This document shows positions 5,971 to 44,720 of a stretch of DNA of 64,000 nt, piece by piece; position 1 is the first letter of the stretch; every line of letters begins with the position of its first letter. The stretch is from a virus. Taxonomy: Duplodnaviria; Caudoviricetes. A program made the position numbers and the translations under genes. A model generated the notes under the pieces. It was given only the letters and a program-made list of their open reading frames with translations. It searched no databases and had not been told where the DNA came from. The DNA is taken from the IMG/VR virus record IMGVR_UViG_3300014206_000007, positions 155,919 through 219,918 of that record. One strand, written 5' to 3'.

Positions 5971-6600
5971 TTATGTGGCATATTCATATTCAACAGTATC
6001 CAAAATTAGATTTTTATATGCCGTTGAATTTTCAACTTTCCGTTTATTAAATTTACAATCAAAGCCGTCTTGGTATTCTAGGAATAATTCTACTCTTGGT
6101 TTAATTGAAAAGTATTTTTCAACAGTTCCAATTTGAATGATATTATCATTAATTAATAAAATACCTTGTAGCATATCTGAATATGCTTTACCTAAATTAT
6201 CCCAATCAGGATCTTGTATTGGACAAATAATTCCTTTTTCAGCTAAATATAGCTCTGTATTTGTCATTGATGATGGAGATAATTGATATGTTTTAACTAA
6301 TAATTTAGTTCGAGTAAATATGACTCCTAAATCGTCAATATATTCTTTTATGATTTTTTTATTTTGCTGCGCTCCTTTAACATAAAAATGCTTTGATTTA
6401 AATTGATACCTTGGTCTTGGAGTAGGTTTAGGTATTATTGGTAAAAGTATATTAATCTTTTTCCATTCTAGTTTATTAATTCGATTTTCCTCCTCCATGA
6501 TCTTATCTTTATTTAAGTTTAAGTTATTTTCCAAATAAATTAATATTTCCTCTTTTATATTTGAAAGATGTCCGAACTTTTCTTCATATTCTTTATCCAT
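5971..6600 (-). CDS. rusA: RusA-family Holliday junction resolvase
   Basis: PKPTPRPR N-motif and PDWDNLGKAYSDMLQGILLINDNII..EKYFSIKPRVE = RusA D-x-D-N..K...D...DD signature. Confidence 0.8.
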   Translation of the reverse strand: MDKEYEEKFGHLSNIKEEILIYLENNLNLNKDKIMEEENRINKLEWKKINILLPIIPKPTPRPRYQFKSKHFYVKGAQQNKKIIKEYIDDLGVIFTRTKLLVKTYQLSPSSMTNTELYLAEKGIICPIQDPDWDNLGKAYSDMLQGILLINDNIIQIGTVEKYFSIKPRVELFLEYQDGFDCKFNKRKVENSTAYKNLILDTVEYEYAT

Positions 6601-6610
6601 AAAAATGCTC

Positions 6611-8347
6611 CTATCGATTTTGTATTTGGAATATTTTACTTAATGCATTTGATAAGCTATCAGTAATTCCCCTAAATTCATTAGCCGGAATATCAGTAAA
6701 TTTATTTTTGATGGCTGCTGTAGCAATATCAATTTTTGCATTTAAATTATTCATCTTTAAATCAACTCCACATAATGTACCTAGATATTCAACTAACGCA
6801 GTATTCTGCAATGCCAAGAATGGTTTTGCTGTTGACGATACCATTAGCTGTGAATATAATGGAGTTATATCAAAAGTTACTTCAAATTCCGTTGGAATTC
6901 CATGTACTGTCCATGATGTATTGTCTGGGCCACCTCTAACAATATTCATATTTGTGATTATTGCTAAGTCTGAATTAAACCATCCTTTTTGGAAGGCTCT
7001 TACAATAAATGGATAGGTGTACATATTATTCGATAGTTGCTTTGGTAAGGATAAAGCTAATAAGTGCATTATTGGAACCATGCATCTTAAGAAAATAGAT
7101 AATTTATTACCATATAATGATGTAAATTTCAAACTACATGACATAGATTTTGAATAATTTACACCATCAACCATTTGTGGAAATACTAATCTTCCACCTT
7201 TAAAATAGTTTTTAGTTAAACCCATAAAACTCTTTATAAATCCATCGTTTTCTGATCCATTAAAAATTGATTGTAAATCATTTTCTAACGCTGAATCAGT
7301 TATTGAACCTATTGGTCCGCCGAATAAGAATTCAAGATTTCTGGCTACGCTATTTAAAGATGAATTGTTAATAATTTCTTCCAATTGTGATGCTGTAGTA
7401 TCGGTAGATATATTTTCATTAACACTAGTACCTTGATTTGTTACAAAGAAGTGCACATATGAATTATCTCCAACAGCACTACTTACTAATCTATCATAAG
7501 CACCTTTCATATCACCAAATACTGAATTTGAATTAGTAGCTGATGCCTTTTCAGGCTCTAACCAATAATCATAATTAAAGTTTTTAAGTTTCTGTGTTCC
7601 ATATGGAATTTTCTCATCACCGATTCCCATTAATATAGCCATCATTCTACATAAGTAGTTAACTACATTCATATATTCTTTTCGGTTTTGTTTAAATTCA
7701 TACAATTTACCATTTAATACGTTACTATCATTATCACTTAAAATCTTAGATTTTAATGCTGAATCTCCAGTTGTTATTCCTAATACTCTTTCATAGAATG
7801 CATTTTTCTGGTCTTTTGAAAAACCTGGTAAATAGTTAACCGTCCCAGGGCATAATGATAGTATACTAGGATTCGATAACATTGAATTTGCAAAAGCTCT
7901 TCCAACACCAGGTGTAATGTCATTGATATATTGAATATCGACATTCATATTAAATTGTGGTGGACATCCAAAAGCTCTTATATATCTATAAAACAATGTT
8001 TTGTATCCTGCCGTATTGACAGTTGTTTCAACAATAGTTTTACCAGTATCATCTATTGTATCATAATTTTCACTATAATCAATTTGATCTGGTTCTGCAT
8101 ATCCATATGCAGGTGGTTGAGATGTTGATGGAGGTGGAGTGCTTTCAGTAACTTTTGTTAGATAAACTCCAGAACACCACCCATTAACGGGAGATGTAAT
8201 ATGTATCCATCCATTTTTCGTTTCATTATTTTCACTTCGTAATGTAGTATTATACGGGAATGCTGAACCTGCAAGTCCATAAGAAACTCCTGGTCCAGAC
8301 CTTATATTTAATGCGCCACTGGCGTTTACTTTATATACAGTACTCAT
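6611..8347 (-). CDS. SH3b-domain virion/baseplate protein
   Basis: N-terminal ALNIRSGPGVSY..GWIHI..GWCSGVYL (SH3b); remainder resembles jumbo-phage tail/baseplate proteins. Confidence 0.65.
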   Translation of the reverse strand: MSTVYKVNASGALNIRSGPGVSYGLAGSAFPYNTTLRSENNETKNGWIHITSPVNGWCSGVYLTKVTESTPPPSTSQPPAYGYAEPDQIDYSENYDTIDDTGKTIVETTVNTAGYKTLFYRYIRAFGCPPQFNMNVDIQYINDITPGVGRAFANSMLSNPSILSLCPGTVNYLPGFSKDQKNAFYERVLGITTGDSALKSKILSDNDSNVLNGKLYEFKQNRKEYMNVVNYLCRMMAILMGIGDEKIPYGTQKLKNFNYDYWLEPEKASATNSNSVFGDMKGAYDRLVSSAVGDNSYVHFFVTNQGTSVNENISTDTTASQLEEIINNSSLNSVARNLEFLFGGPIGSITDSALENDLQSIFNGSENDGFIKSFMGLTKNYFKGGRLVFPQMVDGVNYSKSMSCSLKFTSLYGNKLSIFLRCMVPIMHLLALSLPKQLSNNMYTYPFIVRAFQKGWFNSDLAIITNMNIVRGGPDNTSWTVHGIPTEFEVTFDITPLYSQLMVSSTAKPFLALQNTALVEYLGTLCGVDLKMNNLNAKIDIATAAIKNKFTDIPANEFRGITDSLSNALSKIFQIQNR

Positions 8348-8630: not shown

Positions 8631-11600
8631 TTATCTACCTCGTGCAATAAGTTCATGAATTTCTCTTAATGAGAACTGACTCTTATCTGAAGTTGATTGT
8701 TTATTATTAGCTATAATAATTGGTTTTGCTCCCTTAACGGATTTATTATTGTTAAATTCACCATATACAATTGGTGCTTTATCTGGTTTATCTCTCATAA
8801 ATTCAATTCCATCTTTAACTACATCAATTAAAAGATTCAATTTATCTTCAACGCCAGTAGTATTAACTGCGATATCCAACTTATTGATTAAGTCTTCTTT
8901 TCTCAGTCTTCTACTCTGATATGCATCTCCATATAAAACATCTTCATCTTTATCCTTGACACGATTCATAGATGTTATATTGAATTTATTACTCTTATCT
9001 GCTTTAAGCAGATTTTCTTTATCTTTATCTGATATTAATGCTCCATATCCTTCGATAATAGAATTAATGTCATAATTTGCTGGGTTAATGTCTGAACCAT
9101 ATTTCTGATTAGCTCTTACTTCATAATGTAAATGGTTACCAGTACTTTCACCAGTCGTTCCAACATATCCTATTATTTGTCCTTTAGATACTGAGCTATT
9201 TTCTGGTATAGGTGATTTAGAATTCATATGGGCAAATAGATGATGATACCCAATATTATCTTTTATCAAAAGTTTATTACCATAACTATTATCATAGCCA
9301 TTTAAAATTACTCTTCCACTTACTGGTGTTGGTATTGGAGTTCCACCGGATGCTCCAAAATCTATTCCAGTATGTTTACTATATTTTCCAGTAATTGGGT
9401 GTTTCCTCATACCATAATCACTGGTTAATCTTCCTCCTAATGTCTTACTGAACCAATTTTTTATTGATGTATTAGTATTCATCAATGGCTTAGCCTTATT
9501 GGAAATATCAGTAGGTACTTTAGTTCCAGAGGAATTAGTGTTAGTTGCTTTATTTGCTTCTCTAGACGCCAAAACCATTTGTTTAGCATCAGAATAAGAA
9601 ACATTATTTAATTTCATTTGCATTTTGGCTTCTTCGATTATTGCTAGATTATCAATGATACTAGCTGCACCAGATAAATTACCATCTGGTCCGCCTTCAC
9701 CATAAGTGATTCCCATATTAAATCCAGCACTTCTTCTTGGACCATATTGCATTATATCGTATTTAGATAGATTTGATGATTCTATTATTTTATTTAACTT
9801 ACTAGAATATTTACTATCTGTCGCATATCCAGCCGTTTGTAGAGCAGATGTTGCCACTCTATAATTCTTAGTACTTCTTACAGCAGAATATCTTGGACTA
9901 TTCATTAATTTTGCATAGTCTAATATAGAATCCTCAATTGAATCATAATCTCTAAATTTTGCTATTGTGGAATATGTGTTGCCATATCCATCTTCTTCTT
10001 TTGTCAATTTTTCTTGAACTTTTCCAGTCCATCCTGAGCCCGCTTTGATTCCAAATATATTATTACCAATAGAACTTTTACCCCAGCCAGTTTCTAATAT
10101 AGCTTGTGCAATCAATACTGATGGTAGAATGCCATATTTATCTTTAGCTTTTAATGCTCCAGGCAAAATTTTATCAATAAATTTTGAAGAATCTTTACTG
10201 CCAGAATCATCGATTATTGCATCGATATTTATATTTCCGTCTTCGTCTATATACATCCCATTATCATTGAATATTCTAGTGTATGTAGCTCCACCTAATA
10301 AACTATCAATCCAATGTGTTCCAATTGATCCAACTTTACTAAGAATATCAGCGAGTCCGCTTAATCCTGATAATAAACTACTCTTAGGTTTTTGAGTTGG
10401 CTCAGTAGTATTAAATTGAGCTTGATTTTCAATAACCTTTTCGTCTTTATAACTTTTAGCAGAATCCCATATTGATAATGCAGGTAATGATGGTTGGTTT
10501 GGAGTTGATTTGTTTTTATTTGGTAATTGTGCGTTAAGAAAATCCATAGTTGATGGTAATTTTGGTAGACTAGTTTTATATGGAGCGCCAGGTCCATAAT
10601 TAACTTTATCTTTACTATATGACCATCCGTTAGTCATATCCTGTTGAATATTATCTGAATTATATGATTTAATTCTTCCATCAAGTGGATCTTGTATCAT
10701 AACATTACCGTTTGAATCTATTCCAGTAACTGCAACTACATGACCTGCCTTTGTAAATGGCGAGTCCATTTTACCATTACTCTTTCCTGATAATATTACC
10801 GGATTTCCACTTTTTATATTTTGAATTAAATTATTTTTTGATACTTTTGATGATTGAAGTCCTAATTTCCTTGCACCCTCAGTAAATAAATCTTCTTTAC
10901 TACCACCTTTAGCAATATATCCACTATCTTTTGCTAGTTTCGCAACAGTTAATGGGTCGATATCACGATTAGTTGTATTAGATGCTACATATGATAATGC
11001 AGTAGGACCACATCCTCCAGTATTCATTGTACTTCTTTTTCCATTAGGCAATGTACCTAATGAATAGTTAGCCCATCGTGGATCGGATTGTGAAGGTCCA
11101 TAGGATATATTATCTTTCTTATTAGCCATTTGACCATTGCCATAAAGATAATCAAGTCTTCCACTTCCAATATTACCACCAGATGGTGTTTTAAATGCTT
11201 CTTTTACCGATGATCCAAAATTCTTTAATCCGTTCCATGACTTAGTTGCCCATGATGGATTTTTCAAATCTTGGTAAGCTTTAGTCGATAAGTTTGTGCT
11301 ATTAGATGAATTATAGTTTGCGGTTTCTGTATCAAGAATCTGTTGGTTAGCTTTTAATTCCTTAACCATATCAGCACTACTAACACCGTTTATTTTTGAT
11401 AACTTTTCATATACAGTAGTTGCCATATCAAGTTTCAAATCATTTTTACTAATCTCAGAAGTTACCTCAAGTAGTATATCAAATATTGGTCCGATACCTA
11501 AACCGAGAATAGTTTTAAATGTAGATGAAATAGCAATCATTAACCAGTCAACACTGTCTTCACCAACTCCAAATAATTTATCAGCTTCAAATGCTCCTGA

Positions 11601-41553: not shown

Positions 41554-42087
41554 CTACTCTTTCTCCAATTTCTTTTCTAACTCTTTTAGCTTATTAGCAA
41601 GTTTATTAACATACTTGCCTTTAATTTCTGATTTTAGAACTTTCTTATTGTCTTCGATATCTTCGTAGAAGTAGAAAATTTCATAATCGTCATCATCAAT
41701 ATCGAATACTTTTTCAACATTCTTTTTGATTTTCTTTGCATAGTGTTTATATGCCTTATTTTTAACAACGACAAATAAATTCACATCGCCACTATGCTGA
41801 ACCAATGCTTTCATTAATGCCATTGAAGCTACTTTAAATTCTTTTCCTTTAAAGAATTTATCTTCCATCTTTTTGAGTTTACCTTTATCAATTACATCTT
41901 CACCATCTTTTTCTCTGGCCTTTAATAACTTACTAGGTGGATTCATTCCTCCTAATGCTATTACATTTGCAAACTTTGTCAAGTTTCCAGTTTCATCATC
42001 AGTTGCATCAAATAAGATATAATCCTTTGGCTCAACAAATTTCTTTGCACTCTTTTTCCATTTTTTCTCACTAATTAAAAATATCAT
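41554..42087 (-). CDS. Lys-rich hypothetical protein
   Basis: AAAGGAG RBS before MIFLISEKKW; upstream in-frame extension overlaps tRNA-like RNA. Confidence 0.7.
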   Translation of the reverse strand: MIFLISEKKWKKSAKKFVEPKDYILFDATDDETGNLTKFANVIALGGMNPPSKLLKAREKDGEDVIDKGKLKKMEDKFFKGKEFKVASMALMKALVQHSGDVNLFVVVKNKAYKHYAKKIKKNVEKVFDIDDDDYEIFYFYEDIEDNKKVLKSEIKGKYVNKLANKLKELEKKLEKE

Positions 42088-42142
42088 ACCTATTTCTCCT
42101 TTTAATTTTATTTTTTTGTATTTGTGCACTATAATAATATAT

Positions 42143-42280
42143 CGTTGATAGTAGGATTTGAACCTACACGGGACTTTTACATCTTCCATATTTTCATACA
42201 GCCATAGTTAATTCTTTGACCAGCCAATTCTCATATTACATGAGGACGTCAGCAGTGTCTTCCAGTTTCACCATATCAAC
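42143..42280 (-). tRNA. tRNA-Leu-like RNA with expanded anticodon and variable arms (138 nt)
   Basis: Acceptor GTTGATA/TATCAAC; Leu-type D arm GTG-AAACTGGAAGA-CAC; T arm GTAGG-TTCAAAT-CCTAC; oversized central region; no encoded CCA. Confidence 0.65.
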
Positions 42281-42301
42281 GATACTTTAATATACTTGTA
42301 G

Positions 42302-42538
42302 TTAATGATCTATCATTTCACCATACAGAGTATTTAACTTTACTAGAGCTTTTTGTGCCTCACCATCTGATGAAGACCGATCATGTATATTCTCTAGAAT
42401 ATTCATATACCATTTATCAGCCAACTCTTTGCTGGAATACATCTTTTTAGTAATACCTAACACTTTAGTTCGGCTGGGTCCATCCAATTCCAATAATGCA
42501 AATATATATTTATCCGCATCAGTTTTAAAATACTTCAT
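42302..42538 (-). CDS. J-domain-like small protein (HPD motif absent)
   Basis: VLGIT..KWY..I...IHDR....A..A..KLN.LY..M follows J-domain helix pattern. Confidence 0.45.
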   Translation of the reverse strand: MKYFKTDADKYIFALLELDGPSRTKVLGITKKMYSSKELADKWYMNILENIHDRSSSDGEAQKALVKLNTLYGEMIDH

Positions 42539-42550
42539 ACTCATCACTCC

Positions 42551-43060
42551 CTACTCAATTAATGTTGCACTATTAAAGTCGGGCATTTCGAGTTTATTTA
42601 ACATAGTTATTACTTTATTTTCCATATTTTCTAAGTCAACATTCATTCGTCTTCTTATATCCATAACACTATATCGTGTTTTACAATCAGAATTGCTACA
42701 TATAAATCCTGTATAATTCGTATTGTACCTTAATGATCCTTTACATTTAGGGCAAGTTAATGCACTTTCTTGACCTTTATTAGGATATAAATATCCATAA
42801 TCAAGAATTACTATATCATCATTGTCACGATAACCCCAGTTATAATAATTCTTTAAATTATAACCGATATCATCAAAGATATAAGCTCTACTTATATCTT
42901 TTAATATAGACTTTATAGCTTCCTCATTTGCCGTAAATTGATCATGGTCAAATACATTGACATATTCACATATTAGTATTAACATATTACATTCATATGC
43001 TTTTGTTAAATATTCTGGAAGTTCAATACTTCTTTTATATTCAGTAAAATTGTCAACTTG
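42551..43060 (-). CDS. Protein-kinase-like gene, exon 2 (C-lobe plus Zn ribbon)
   Basis: QVDNFTE (alphaC Glu), ICEYV hinge, DDIG....NWG catalytic loop, ILDYGY, CPKC..CSNSDC. Confidence 0.75.
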   Translation of the reverse strand, partial: QVDNFTEYKRSIELPEYLTKAYECNMLILICEYVNVFDHDQFTANEEAIKSILKDISRAYIFDDIGYNLKNYYNWGYRDNDDIVILDYGYLYPNKGQESALTCPKCKGSLRYNTNYTGFICSNSDCKTRYSVMDIRRRMNVDLENMENKVITMLNKLEMPDFNSATLIE

Positions 43061-44477
43061 CGTCATTTTCATATAGATTCGTTAAATCTATACAGTTCTT
43101 TTATGAACTTCCCTATCTCTCAATAGGATACAAGACTATATCTTCCTTAATATATACTTTTACCATATATATTTAAAGCCCCATGTTTCCATTTAAAGGA
43201 ATTACTATAGACTAATATCATCTATAAACCTACCACTTGGCTGTACTCTACTCATTTCGTGTATTATTTTCATAATACCTTATTTTCAATCCATCTACAC
43301 AATTAAGTGTATTTACATATTTCTATGAATATGGATGTCTAACTTTGGATAGTCGTTGAACTCATTTATTTGATTTATTTATTTTATATAATTTTGATAT
43401 GGATTTTCGCACATTTCCATATTTTATATCACATACATATTTTAATGGTACATTTGTTATTTTTTCTATTTGTAATGGAGTAATATTCTTTTCTAATAAT
43501 TGACATACTTTATGAATAATATCATTACTATATTTATATTTATTTTCAAAGTATTTATCAAAATTATATTTAGAAGATATATCTTTCCAAAATTTTGTTC
43601 CATACACTAAATGATGACATAATTCTTTTATAGTTGATAAAGATATATTTTTATTAGAAAATTTATTATATATTTCTTTAGGTAATGCTCCATTTTCTAA
43701 TAATTTACATATCAATTCTATTTCATCATTATTCCATAAATTTTTCCTAGTCTTAATTATATTTATGGCATGACGTGTATTTTCTAATGGAGTGGTTTCT
43801 TCTAAATTATCAAACCAATTATTCCATGGCCTTCCATCTAAATGATTTATGTGATATTCATTTTTAATTTCATTATTTGACCATGTATAATATACTAGCC
43901 TATGAATAAATATAGTATATCGAATATTATTATCATCATATAAGGATATTATATGATATCCTCCTTTTTTAATTTTATGATGTAATATTATTCGTTTTGA
44001 TTTAGAATAGATTACTCCATTTTTTGTAATATAATATCGACTAAAATTATTTATTTTTCTAAATCCATATGCTTCGATATTTTGTTCAAAATTATTTGGG
44101 ATTAAATAATAAATATTTTTTCGTGATACATTATTATCATTACCATCCTTATATAAAATATCAAATATAAATTGACCACAAAAAGTATATGCCATAATAG
44201 TTGCTAATTGATATTTATTAAATTTTATAGTTATATTTTTTAATGTTATGAAATCATAAATATTACATTCTTTATCAATATAATAATTTTCATTATTATA
44301 TTCCGTGGGATATAATTTATTTATATTATCACCACCTATATTAATATTGTGCGAATAAATCAAATAAACTAGCTGCGTGATTGACTCTATTCAATACCTT
44401 GTTACTTAATATATTAAGTAGTATTGACTTAACGAGTTCGTCCCCGCAATTAATGGGGTTACGAGGCCTAATTGTTA
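43061..44477 (-). mobile_element. Group I intron (1417 nt)
   Basis: P1: exon CGAGGU pairs with intron GCCUCG, U.G at 5' splice site; R element GTTCAACGACTA (~43350-43361); S element AAGATATAGTC (~43134-43144); ends in G at 43061; splicing restores frame. Confidence 0.88.
43362..44363 (-). CDS. Intron-encoded HNH homing endonuclease (NUMOD4-HNH with HTH repeats)
   Basis: YYITKNGVIYS; IHRLVYYTW..INHLDGRPWNNWFDNLEETTPLENTRHA; two C-terminal helical repeats; start uncertain. Confidence 0.85.
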   Translation of the reverse strand: MIYSHNINIGGDNINKLYPTEYNNENYYIDKECNIYDFITLKNITIKFNKYQLATIMAYTFCGQFIFDILYKDGNDNNVSRKNIYYLIPNNFEQNIEAYGFRKINNFSRYYITKNGVIYSKSKRIILHHKIKKGGYHIISLYDDNNIRYTIFIHRLVYYTWSNNEIKNEYHINHLDGRPWNNWFDNLEETTPLENTRHAINIIKTRKNLWNNDEIELICKLLENGALPKEIYNKFSNKNISLSTIKELCHHLVYGTKFWKDISSKYNFDKYFENKYKYSNDIIHKVCQLLEKNITPLQIEKITNVPLKYVCDIKYGNVRKSISKLYKINKSNK

Positions 44478-44720
44478 ACCTCGATAATCTAAAGCTATTT
44501 TCACTACAAACCCATTATAATGAAAAGCAATTCTATTAGTTCCAGTTCCCAATTCATGGAAATCTGGACCTAATATTTCTTTTATCATTTCTGCTTTTTC
44601 ATTATTATCTGGAATATCAACTCTGCATGAGTGATAGTGTAATTTCTTTAACATTTCTTTTGAGAAGAAATGATTAATTAGAAATTTCTTATTGTCATCT
44701 TGTAAACGTGGTAATGCCAT
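44478..44720 (-). CDS. Protein-kinase-like gene, exon 1 (N-lobe)
   Basis: AAGGAGG RBS; ELGTGTNRIAF (Gly loop) ..VVKIA (catalytic Lys); apparent TAA stop is the first intron triplet. Confidence 0.75.

Follow-up and report, generated by a model that had tools for sequence, protein, structure and literature searches.

The 64,000-nucleotide stretch of DNA analysed here (the window) corresponds to positions 155,919 to 219,918 of the IMG/VR virus record IMGVR_UViG_3300014206_000007 (Duplodnaviria; Caudoviricetes). It is the final 64 kb of that record, which comprises 219,918 bp with direct terminal repeats and a GC content of 27.9%, and is judged complete. On the minus strand of the window, downstream of a protein kinase gene and a gene for a J-domain-like protein of 80 amino acids (aa), lies a gene of 138 nt for a tRNA-shaped RNA, the sole tRNA-like gene of the phage genome. 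Our main conclusion, to which we would assign a probability of about 0.7, is that the product of this gene is a functional and non-decoding small RNA, with a leucine tRNA as its frame and a conserved domain that binds one partner.

The tRNA frame and its inner region

The elements of the RNA gene are given below, RNA position p being window position 42281-p. H1, H2, Hc and Hd designate the hairpins located between the D arm and the T arm.

42143..42280, minus strand: whole tRNA-shaped RNA gene, 138 nt; matched by the tRNA family RF00005 with 30.5 bits at exactly these coordinates
42274..42280, minus strand: acceptor 5' strand GUUGAUA (RNA 1-7), 7 of 7 pairs with 42144-42150
42143..42150, minus strand: acceptor 3' strand UAUCAAC (RNA 131-137) and discriminator G138; CCA not encoded
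42256..42271, minus strand: leucine-type D arm (RNA 10-25), 3-bp stem (G10-C25, U11-A24, G12-C23) and loop AAACUGGAAGA with the elbow GG
42223..42253, minus strand: H1, the arm at the anticodon position (RNA 28-58), stem GCUGA/UUGGC, internal loop CGUC/AA and hairpin CUCAU-GUAAU-AUGAG; lineage-specific
42235..42239, minus strand: tip loop GUAAU of H1, holding UAA (RNA 42-46); hypervariable, GAUAU in contig L107 and AAUAC in contig L112
42201..42221, minus strand: H2, invariant 21-nt hairpin GGUCAAAGAAUUAACUAUGGC (RNA 60-80), with an A.A mismatch and the hexaloop AAUUAA
42189..42198, minus strand: Hc, small hairpin UAU-GAAA-AUA (RNA 83-92); compensatory change U83:A92 to C:G in L113
42172..42183, minus strand: Hd, small hairpin GAU-GUAAAA-GUC (RNA 98-109), stacked on G94G95/C110C111; compensatory change A99:U108 to G:C in L112
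42151..42167, minus strand: T arm GUAGG-UUCAAAU-CCUAC (RNA 114-130); 3 of 5 pairs with double-sided changes across lineages

A preliminary description of the locus had pointed out a perfect 7-bp acceptor stem, U8, a 3-bp leucine-type D stem with GG, a perfect T arm and the lack of CCA, as well as a GCUGA/UUGGC stem enclosing the CUCAU-GUAAU-AUGAG hairpin, a GAAA-capped stem in a long variable region and an excess of ~50 nt over a normal tRNA-Leu. All of these features were confirmed in the sequence. As in bacterial class II tRNA-Leu, the D arm fits the pattern TGGTGRAAYYGGNAGACRC and a variable region is present, here enlarged to ~55 nt, so that ~86 nt occupy the place of the anticodon and variable arms. 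The base-pair probabilities of H1 range from 0.56 to 1.0. A D arm and a T loop at such spacing have a single occurrence in the window, and 100 shuffled versions of it contain none.

The programs with which the tRNA character of the gene can be checked gave divided answers. The Rfam model RF00005 placed the gene above the gathering score of 29 bits; the score lies barely over this threshold because of an insertion, 69 nt replacing the 17-nt anticodon arm in the alignment, where 15 extra nt also appear before the T arm. ARAGORN made no call on the gene, either with default settings or with introns allowed, and when its stringency was lowered it proposed no more than a poor model of Leu(aag) interrupted by a 60-nt intron. 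When applied to the whole phage genome, it reported no tRNA and no tmRNA; with this search empty and no tmRNA match in Rfam, a tmRNA was rejected as the identity of the gene.

A hairpin domain common to unrelated phages

Distant members were found in IMG/VR by a scan with the central 23 nt of the RNA followed by a looser pattern, which rendered three genes, L113 (123 nt, on a 117-kb contig), L114 (155 nt) and L115 (158 nt); a further match, L116, was discarded as a chance occurrence of the pattern without tRNA features. The acceptor stem, leucine-type D arm and T arm of the three genes are of differing sequence and fully paired. Across five lineages every pair of the acceptor, D and T stems is preserved, by 1-4 types of base pair at each position and, in the seven-pair acceptor stem, by 2-4. 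The arms at the anticodon position are unrelated in sequence: that of L113 has 17 nt, with a 5-bp stem and the loop GAAAUAA, that of L114 is branched and has ~50 nt, and that of L115 has ~52 nt.

Just before the T arm, on the other hand, all members have a domain in common, which consists of H2 followed by Hc and Hd. H2 is identical at all 21 positions in the window, L112, L113, L114 and L115, and is independently predicted by RNAalifold; its sequence is invariant and shows no covariation, whereas the other helices vary in sequence but keep their pairing. The counterparts of Hc are CAU-GCAA-AUG in L113, UAUA-GAAA-UAUA in L114 and a different hairpin, GGCC-UAAU-GGUC, in L115, and those of Hd are GGU-GUAA-GCC in L112, GAC-GAAA-GUC in L113 and L114 (U100.G107 to C-G) and GGCU-UCAA-AGCC in L115. 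In an alignment of the region from H2 to the T arm, 93.7% of the pair cells are paired and five pairs are changed on both sides, as compared to 37-47% of paired cells in slid controls. The covariation of homologs that the preliminary description had named as a check is present in the form of compensatory changes found across five lineages. A covariance model of the region (R1), built with the window sequence included, gave 96.5 bits for the window, which is part of the training set, and 71.5-97.6 bits for the other members, with one copy per record, and none of 100 other loci (T4, T5 and 98 oversized tRNA-Leu-like genes) scored above 29 bits. The new element at this locus, as far as can be judged from sequence comparison, is thus a conserved domain of an invariant 21-nt hairpin and two small hairpins, located at the variable-arm position and defining a subfamily across unrelated phages.

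The carriers have GC contents of 28, 40, 34 and 43% and, by blastp, share from 0 to 5 proteins, namely five between the phage of the window and carrier G001, one weak match between G002 and G001, and otherwise none. No protein common to all carriers was detected by blastp, two of the carriers being small fragments, and no conserved protein neighbour of the RNA gene was found across them. The presence of a gene with an identical hairpin in phages that share almost no proteins indicates that its product is probably a working small RNA. Outside the subfamily, the 21-mer of H2 was absent from 185,579 bacterial and archaeal species genomes in two scans, the H2 domain had no match in E. coli genomes, and a blastn search of GenBank phages with the 3' 80 nt of the RNA rendered no homolog, only chance and generic T-arm matches.

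An invariant sequence without covariation might also be expected if the 21 bases acted as DNA, as a recombination, homing or attachment site or as an operator, the tRNA shape being incidental. The gene behaves as a cassette that is present or absent between promoter-like AT-rich repeats, and a homing endonuclease gene is located 1 kb upstream, both of which would suit such a role. However, the 21-mer always occupies one and the same position within a tRNA-shaped gene, and the remaining helices of this gene co-vary as RNA; its absence from the 185,579 genomes means that no host attachment partner is seen; and in the distant carriers no endonuclease gene directly adjoins the RNA, an endonuclease-like ORF lying ~800 nt downstream in L114. 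We find a function as DNA scarcely credible.

H2 was also compared with the 11-nt GAAA tetraloop receptor (CCUAAG/UAUGG). UAUGG is present in H2, but UCAAAG stands in the place of CCUAAG, and H2 was rejected as a canonical tetraloop receptor because the key U at position 3 is A. The GAAA receptor variants given in the available part of PMC11381326 all keep this U, which pairs with an A in reverse Hoogsteen geometry. Every member has at least one GAAA-containing loop, such loops being common, and the likeness of H2 to a tetraloop receptor is a resemblance only.

Close relatives and an optional cassette

Close relatives were searched for with the flanking proteins as anchors, among them the 80-aa J-like protein. 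A full copy of 136 nt is present at positions 4635-4770 of L112, a metagenome-assembled contig from NCBI, with an RF00005 score of 30.6 bits. It differs from the window RNA by 8 changes and a 2-nt deletion; two of the changes constitute the compensatory pair at 99 and 108 in Hd, one is A40G, and four are in the 5-nt tip loop. Partial copies are found in L107 (RNA 1-67) and L100 (RNA 96-138), two short contigs that break off within the gene at RNA positions 67 and 96, respectively. In L100 C137 is replaced by U, which keeps the pair with G1 as G-U. The identity of the RNA to its close relatives is 93-95% (94-95% for L107 and L100), as compared to 72-86% for the flanking genes. The gene is also covered by contigs assembled from three further sequencing runs: in X3 there are no differences in its 138 nt versus 13 and an indel in the flanks, in X2 the one listed difference is A40G, which there and in L112 preserves the H1 pair as G-U, and in X4 the gene is kept and is then followed by a different downstream gene. 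A clean empty site between the same flanks was observed in L106, whose upstream protein is 83% identical, and in L108 and L109 (70%). The RNA gene being present or cleanly absent among close relatives, and conserved while its neighbours changed, it can be regarded as an optional cassette.

Its flanks (42281-42301 and 42088-42142; 810-864 in L106) are AT-rich promoter-like repeats, GTATATTAAAG upstream and GATATATTATTATAG downstream, and the empty site of L106 retains GTATATTAAAG, which suggests gain or loss of the cassette by recombination between these repeats.

The distribution among relatives is also relevant to whether the gene might be a decaying tRNA-Leu pseudogene, or the neutral remnant of an insertion into a tRNA gene. 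Its having no anticodon arm, no ARAGORN call, a fold no more stable than that of shuffled sequences and some close relatives without the gene would be in line with decay. On the contrary, its conservation exceeds that of the flanking coding sequence, compensatory changes are found, and the same architecture with the invariant 21-nt hairpin recurs in phages sharing almost no proteins. The preliminary description had considered that relatives with an ordinary tRNA at this site, and an unconserved insert, would identify a pseudogene; the relatives have either the same expanded RNA or an empty site, and none of them an ordinary tRNA. Decay or neutrality is, in our opinion, very improbable, and the view of that description that the gene encodes a tRNA mimic rather than a simply decaying tRNA is borne out by a conservation above that of the flanks and by the compensatory changes that keep the helices paired in five lineages.

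Other searches added no close relatives. An exact and near-exact search of IMG/VR with the 3' half of the RNA gave no match, a metagenome scan with the 5' half rendered only an unrelated AT-rich tRNA-Leu (L105), and the flanking proteins had no relatives in IMG/VR and, among GenBank phages, only Fusobacterium-phage homologs of the 80-aa protein, where the RNA gene is not present. These are the only cultured-phage relatives of a neighbouring protein. DNA nearly identical to that of the phage studied here was found in landfill, wastewater and river metagenomes. Among the runs recorded as RNA, none contains the stretch; the RNA-labelled run X18 gave no more than a contig of 151 nt, which reaches 8 nt into the gene, is probably DNA and is uninformative on expression.

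Decoding and splicing

The UAA at the tip of H1 had been proposed in the preliminary description as a leucine anticodon. It cannot be one, because the sequence of the loop varies among the close relatives, and the arms of the distant relatives are quite different. A canonical anticodon arm with a 5-bp stem, a 7-nt loop and U33 was found in no member of the subfamily. The only arm of anticodon-arm size in the window RNA, CCUCA-UGUAAUA-UGAGA, has 4 of 5 pairs and G at position 33, and the arm of L113 is canonical in size, yet its 7-nt loop lacks U33. Moreover, bacterial leucyl-tRNA synthetase needs the discriminator A73 as an identity element, and the discriminator is G in the window, which departs from bacterial tRNA-Leu, G in L112, G or C in L113 depending on the register, C in L114 and A in L115. 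As no anticodon loop is conserved, the RNA is classified from its sequence as non-decoding, that is, as one that cannot read codons.

It could still be the case that a real decoding tRNA is produced by removal of the extra sequence as one or more unusual short introns, as in the tRNAs of Lak megaphages, an unusual short intron having also been offered in the preliminary description. Tentative indications in this direction are the low-stringency ARAGORN model of Leu(aag) with a 60-nt intron and the fact that cutting 14 nt from a 21-nt H1 loop leaves CUGAGAA, a possible anticodon loop with GAG. Besides, other phage tRNA-Leu(UAA) genes in IMG/VR have an anticodon loop that is normal apart from an insert of 50-70 nt, and tRNA introns have been reported in Lak phages (PMC6784885). 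However, no single excision yields a 5-bp stem and a 7-nt loop with U33; a second excision, of ~35-40 nt of the variable region, would still be required, and the part to be removed holds H2, the most conserved sequence. The anticodon arm of L113 has no extra length, and still its loop is GAAAUAA. No Rfam intron or ribozyme, including a group I core, was matched in the gene, an Rfam E-value scan for other families (small ribozymes, riboswitches, Y RNA-like RNAs and mimics of the skipping-rope type) found nothing, and the phage proteins include no Rnl1, Rnl2, RtcB or CCA-adding enzyme. A spliced, decoding tRNA therefore appears very unlikely.

Genomic context

The neighbouring genes and sequence elements in the window are the following.

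42302..42544, minus strand: upstream gene, 80-aa J-domain-like protein; match to phrog_17986; served as anchor for relatives
41554..42087, minus strand: downstream gene, 177 aa, no function assigned; in L112 and the X4 variant replaced or preceded by a different 180-aa gene
44478-44720 and 42551-43060, minus strand: exons of the protein kinase gene, split by a 1,417-nt group I intron
43061-44477, minus strand: group I intron in the kinase gene; 3' core at 43113-43202
43362-44363: ORF for an HNH homing endonuclease of 333 aa, inside the kinase intron
42281..42285, minus strand: leader GUAUC, complementary to the trailer GAUAU (42139-42143)
42289..42294, minus strand: -10-like TATATT, ~8 nt upstream of RNA position 1; consensus match only, within CTACAAGTATATTAAAG, which is conserved and borders the presence/absence site

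According to the preliminary description, the RNA gene ends a kinase operon. This holds in outline, with the kinase and J-like genes upstream; the kinase gene itself is split by an intron with an HNH endonuclease gene. The kinase of L108 and L112 is an unsplit protein of 250 aa whose residues 1-81 and 82-249 match the two exons, and the 3' part of the intron is 70-88% identical to intron/endonuclease regions of Staphylococcus, Bacillus, Yersinia and Vibrio phages. In the J-like protein the HPD motif is replaced by HD (...NILENIHDRSSSDGEAQKALVKLNTLY...); the protein also matches hypothetical proteins of the Fusobacterium phages Funu1 and JD-Fnp2, 3 and 5.

Pairing of leader and trailer could lengthen the acceptor helix to 12 bp in a precursor. 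L107 and L112 have the leader AUAUC, L100 and L112 have the trailer GAUAU, and the 12-bp extension is not present in the distant relatives. The CTACAAGTATATTAAAG motif with TATATT is retained in L106, which has no RNA gene, and promoter-like sites showed no enrichment with respect to shuffled sequences. In L100, the 177-aa gene is followed (787-1464) by a gene for a bacterial-type response regulator (Response_reg and Trans_reg_C) on the opposite strand, to which nothing is similar at that place in the phage studied here; this could represent a different genomic context or a chimeric assembly.

The surroundings differ among carriers, with kinase and J-like genes here, Mu-like portal and head genes including a PBECR2 domain in L115, and unknowns and an endonuclease in L113 and L114. 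Immediately upstream of the L115 RNA copy, at 9849-11045 on the minus strand, is a gene for a Mu-F-like minor head protein of 398 aa with a C-terminal PBECR2 domain (of the barnase/EndoU/colicin E5-D/RelE nuclease group). As a single case, it is a lead towards RNA-cleaving conflict systems. Around the L113 copy ~1.1 kb is nearly free of ORFs; on the same contig ARAGORN calls a tRNA with a four-base anticodon (acca) at 6490-6562, adjoining a tRNA-Lys(ctt), and a further Rfam tRNA (7939-8016, minus strand, 40.4 bits) is not called by ARAGORN.

Proposed function

The data can be brought together in the following model. Transcription of the RNA would be joint with that of the early genes for the kinase and the J-like protein, or would start from the adjacent upstream TATATT. 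The intact top half of the tRNA, with the acceptor and T arms and the D/T elbow, would let host RNase P cut at G1, and a host 3' processing enzyme may trim after G138; the tRNA fold would confer tRNA-like stability, the RNA being compact and nuclease-resistant. The arm at the anticodon position would serve as a lineage-specific variable spacer, and the domain of H2, Hc and Hd as the working surface, to which one specific partner would bind. An H2 that stays invariant while the other helices drift and compensate, in carriers with hardly any proteins in common, suggests that there is one specific partner, probably encoded by the host, since the carriers are unrelated and have neither a shared protein nor a conserved neighbour. 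A conserved host component is thus probably a better candidate than a phage protein. An optional cassette with differing neighbours is, besides, typical of accessory genes for host takeover or counter-defence.

Several observations weigh against this interpretation or limit it. We infer transcription, processing, CCA addition and stability alike. The fold is not unusually stable in comparison with shuffled sequences (z of -1.1 over its full length and +0.6 over the inner 88 nt), and the support for an RNA is therefore comparative, not thermodynamic. Hc and Hd are the weaker part of the structural model, because RNAalifold alone recovers only H2 and the T arm; the two hairpins have only 3 bp, and their support is one compensatory change each, together with a realignment of L115 by hand. 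Purifying selection may not account for all of the high identity among close relatives, part of which could be due to the cassette having been exchanged recently. Two of the carriers, G002 and G003, are represented by fragments that are 9% and 22% complete, which leaves room for a shared phage-encoded partner. Finally, two kinds of RNA target were looked for with a negative result: a search of the phage genome for an antisense target or a second copy rendered only chance-level matches of 10-18 nt, and the pairing of H2 with E. coli 16S, 23S and 5S rRNA was no better than that of shuffled H2.

As a special case of this interpretation, the RNA might act as a tRNA-shaped decoy or sponge, in which the frame would be the bait, held by the elbow and the acceptor end, and would titrate or inhibit a host tRNA-handling enzyme while the conserved domain adds affinity; the candidates would include a defence nuclease, a tRNA-modifying toxin, a synthetase, the CCA-adding enzyme and a T-box leader. 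The top half of the tRNA, perfectly kept in five lineages, and the patchy distribution as an optional accessory gene agree with it, as does the position of the L115 copy directly after the Mu-F-like head protein with PBECR2. Nevertheless, that neighbour occurs in one lineage only, the discriminator varies among G, C and A, which is a poor fit to one synthetase, and the invariant part is H2 and not the frame. A decoy for anticodon nucleases, as suggested in the preliminary description, is unlikely because there is no conserved anticodon loop to imitate, and known anticodon nucleases are unlikely targets for the same reason. We consider a decoy of this type, with any of these candidate targets, to be rather unlikely.

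A further extension of the working-RNA interpretation, possible but on balance doubtful, is that the H2 domain on its tRNA frame constitutes a horizontally spreading RNA effector which binds one highly conserved host factor, for example in tRNA processing, translation or RNA-sensing defence. If this were true, the phages would possess a tool for host takeover or counter-defence that is made of RNA rather than protein; likewise, a partner that turned out to be a defence or translation factor would make the RNA a phage effector of this nature. H2 provides a defined target for mutation, and the R1 covariance model can be used to gather more members of the subfamily.

Other oversized tRNA-Leu-framed genes of phages

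A pattern scan of IMG/VR for a leucine-type D arm followed, after 75-105 nt, by a T loop rendered 98 loci (L001-L098), and since 71 of them have at least 6 of 7 acceptor pairs, with genes of 120-153 nt, oversized tRNA-Leu-framed genes appear to be common in phages. The discriminator is A in 41 and G in 13 of 62 unique oversized genes. One group (L019, L032, L037, L039, L044, L051-L053, L065, L071, L092 and L096, and also L021, L031, L056 and L091) comprises tRNA-Leu(UAA) genes in which the anticodon stem and the variable arm are normal and the anticodon loop contains an insert of 50-70 nt. These inserts often end in CACCA and fold like a minihelix, and some have a T arm of their own (GUGAGUUCAAAUCUCAC in L031), a tRNA-like unit being then nested in a tRNA. 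Another group (L008, L010, L022, L026, L034-L036, L041, L062, L086, L093, L095 and L097) has the acceptor UGUAGGG/CCCUACA, the discriminator G and an anticodon arm of canonical size with the loop YUGUCUM (GUC), together with a variable region of 65-90 nt that often contains GGGUUGACCAC; these may be tRNA-Asp-like genes with a giant variable arm. The metagenomes show genes framed on tRNA-Leu without an anticodon arm to be common in phages, the 71 loci of this one scan being candidates, and tRNA-like stable RNAs with no assigned function have long been known from T4 and T5. There is an annotation gap as well, for tRNA finders skip such genes or could mislabel them as tRNA-Leu.

Comparison with known RNAs

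With canonical class II tRNA-Leu the RNA shares the 7-bp acceptor stem, U8, the 3-bp D stem with the GG elbow, the UUCAAAU T arm and a long extra region, whereas it has no anticodon arm of 5 bp and 7 nt, no U33 and a discriminator G, and is ~50 nt too long. A related principle is found in tRNA-scaffold expression, in which the anticodon region of an engineered tRNA frame is swapped for another RNA and the chimera is processed and stable. The scaffold is, however, a laboratory design, while here the gene is natural and the scaffold role of its frame is only a candidate one. The tRNA genes of Lak megaphages are also oversized and contain "enigmatic introns", extra sequence that is conserved and whose mode of processing is not known (Devoto et al. 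2019, PMC6784885). A typable tRNA is recovered from the Lak genes once a single insert in the anticodon loop is taken out, in contrast to the present RNA, whose conserved block is located outside the anticodon loop. Three bacterial tRNA-mimic families described in a 2026 preprint have other motifs, and neither a description of the present RNA family nor a function for T5 RNA1 was found in the literature.

Among phage stable RNAs, species 1 and species 2 of T4 (rnaC, 139 nt, and rnaD, 119 nt) are of similar size and lie beside tRNA genes, and neither has had a function assigned to it in decades. The T arm and the acceptor end of rnaC resemble those of a tRNA, but rnaC differs from the present RNA in having no RF00005 match, a weak tRNA-Sec-like alignment (17.5 bits), no leucine-type D arm and no sequence similarity.

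The closest comparison is T5 RNA1 (NC_005859, 30501-30644), annotated as "tRNA-like stable RNA with unknown functions" and, like the RNA described here, of ~140 nt. Both have an acceptor stem, a leucine-type D arm (UGCCGGAAUUGGUAGACGG in T5 RNA1), a T arm and a long variable arm, and in both the stretch from the D arm to the T arm holds a non-canonical insert. T5 RNA1 is not known to take part in decoding. The anticodon stem of T5 RNA1 encloses 47 nt instead of a 7-nt loop, and RF00005 aligns with it end to end at 24 bits. On the other hand, its insert shares no sequence with ours and has no H2, its R1 score is 17.5 bits versus 71-98 for the members, and it is located in a tRNA cluster, while the present phage has no other tRNA. 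The expansion is thus in the anticodon loop in T5 RNA1, and the conserved expansion here is at the variable-arm position. We conclude that the RNA of the window is a variant of the T5 RNA1 kind, and, if the H2 domain does act as an RNA effector, the same explanation might also extend to the tRNA-like stable RNAs of phages such as T5.

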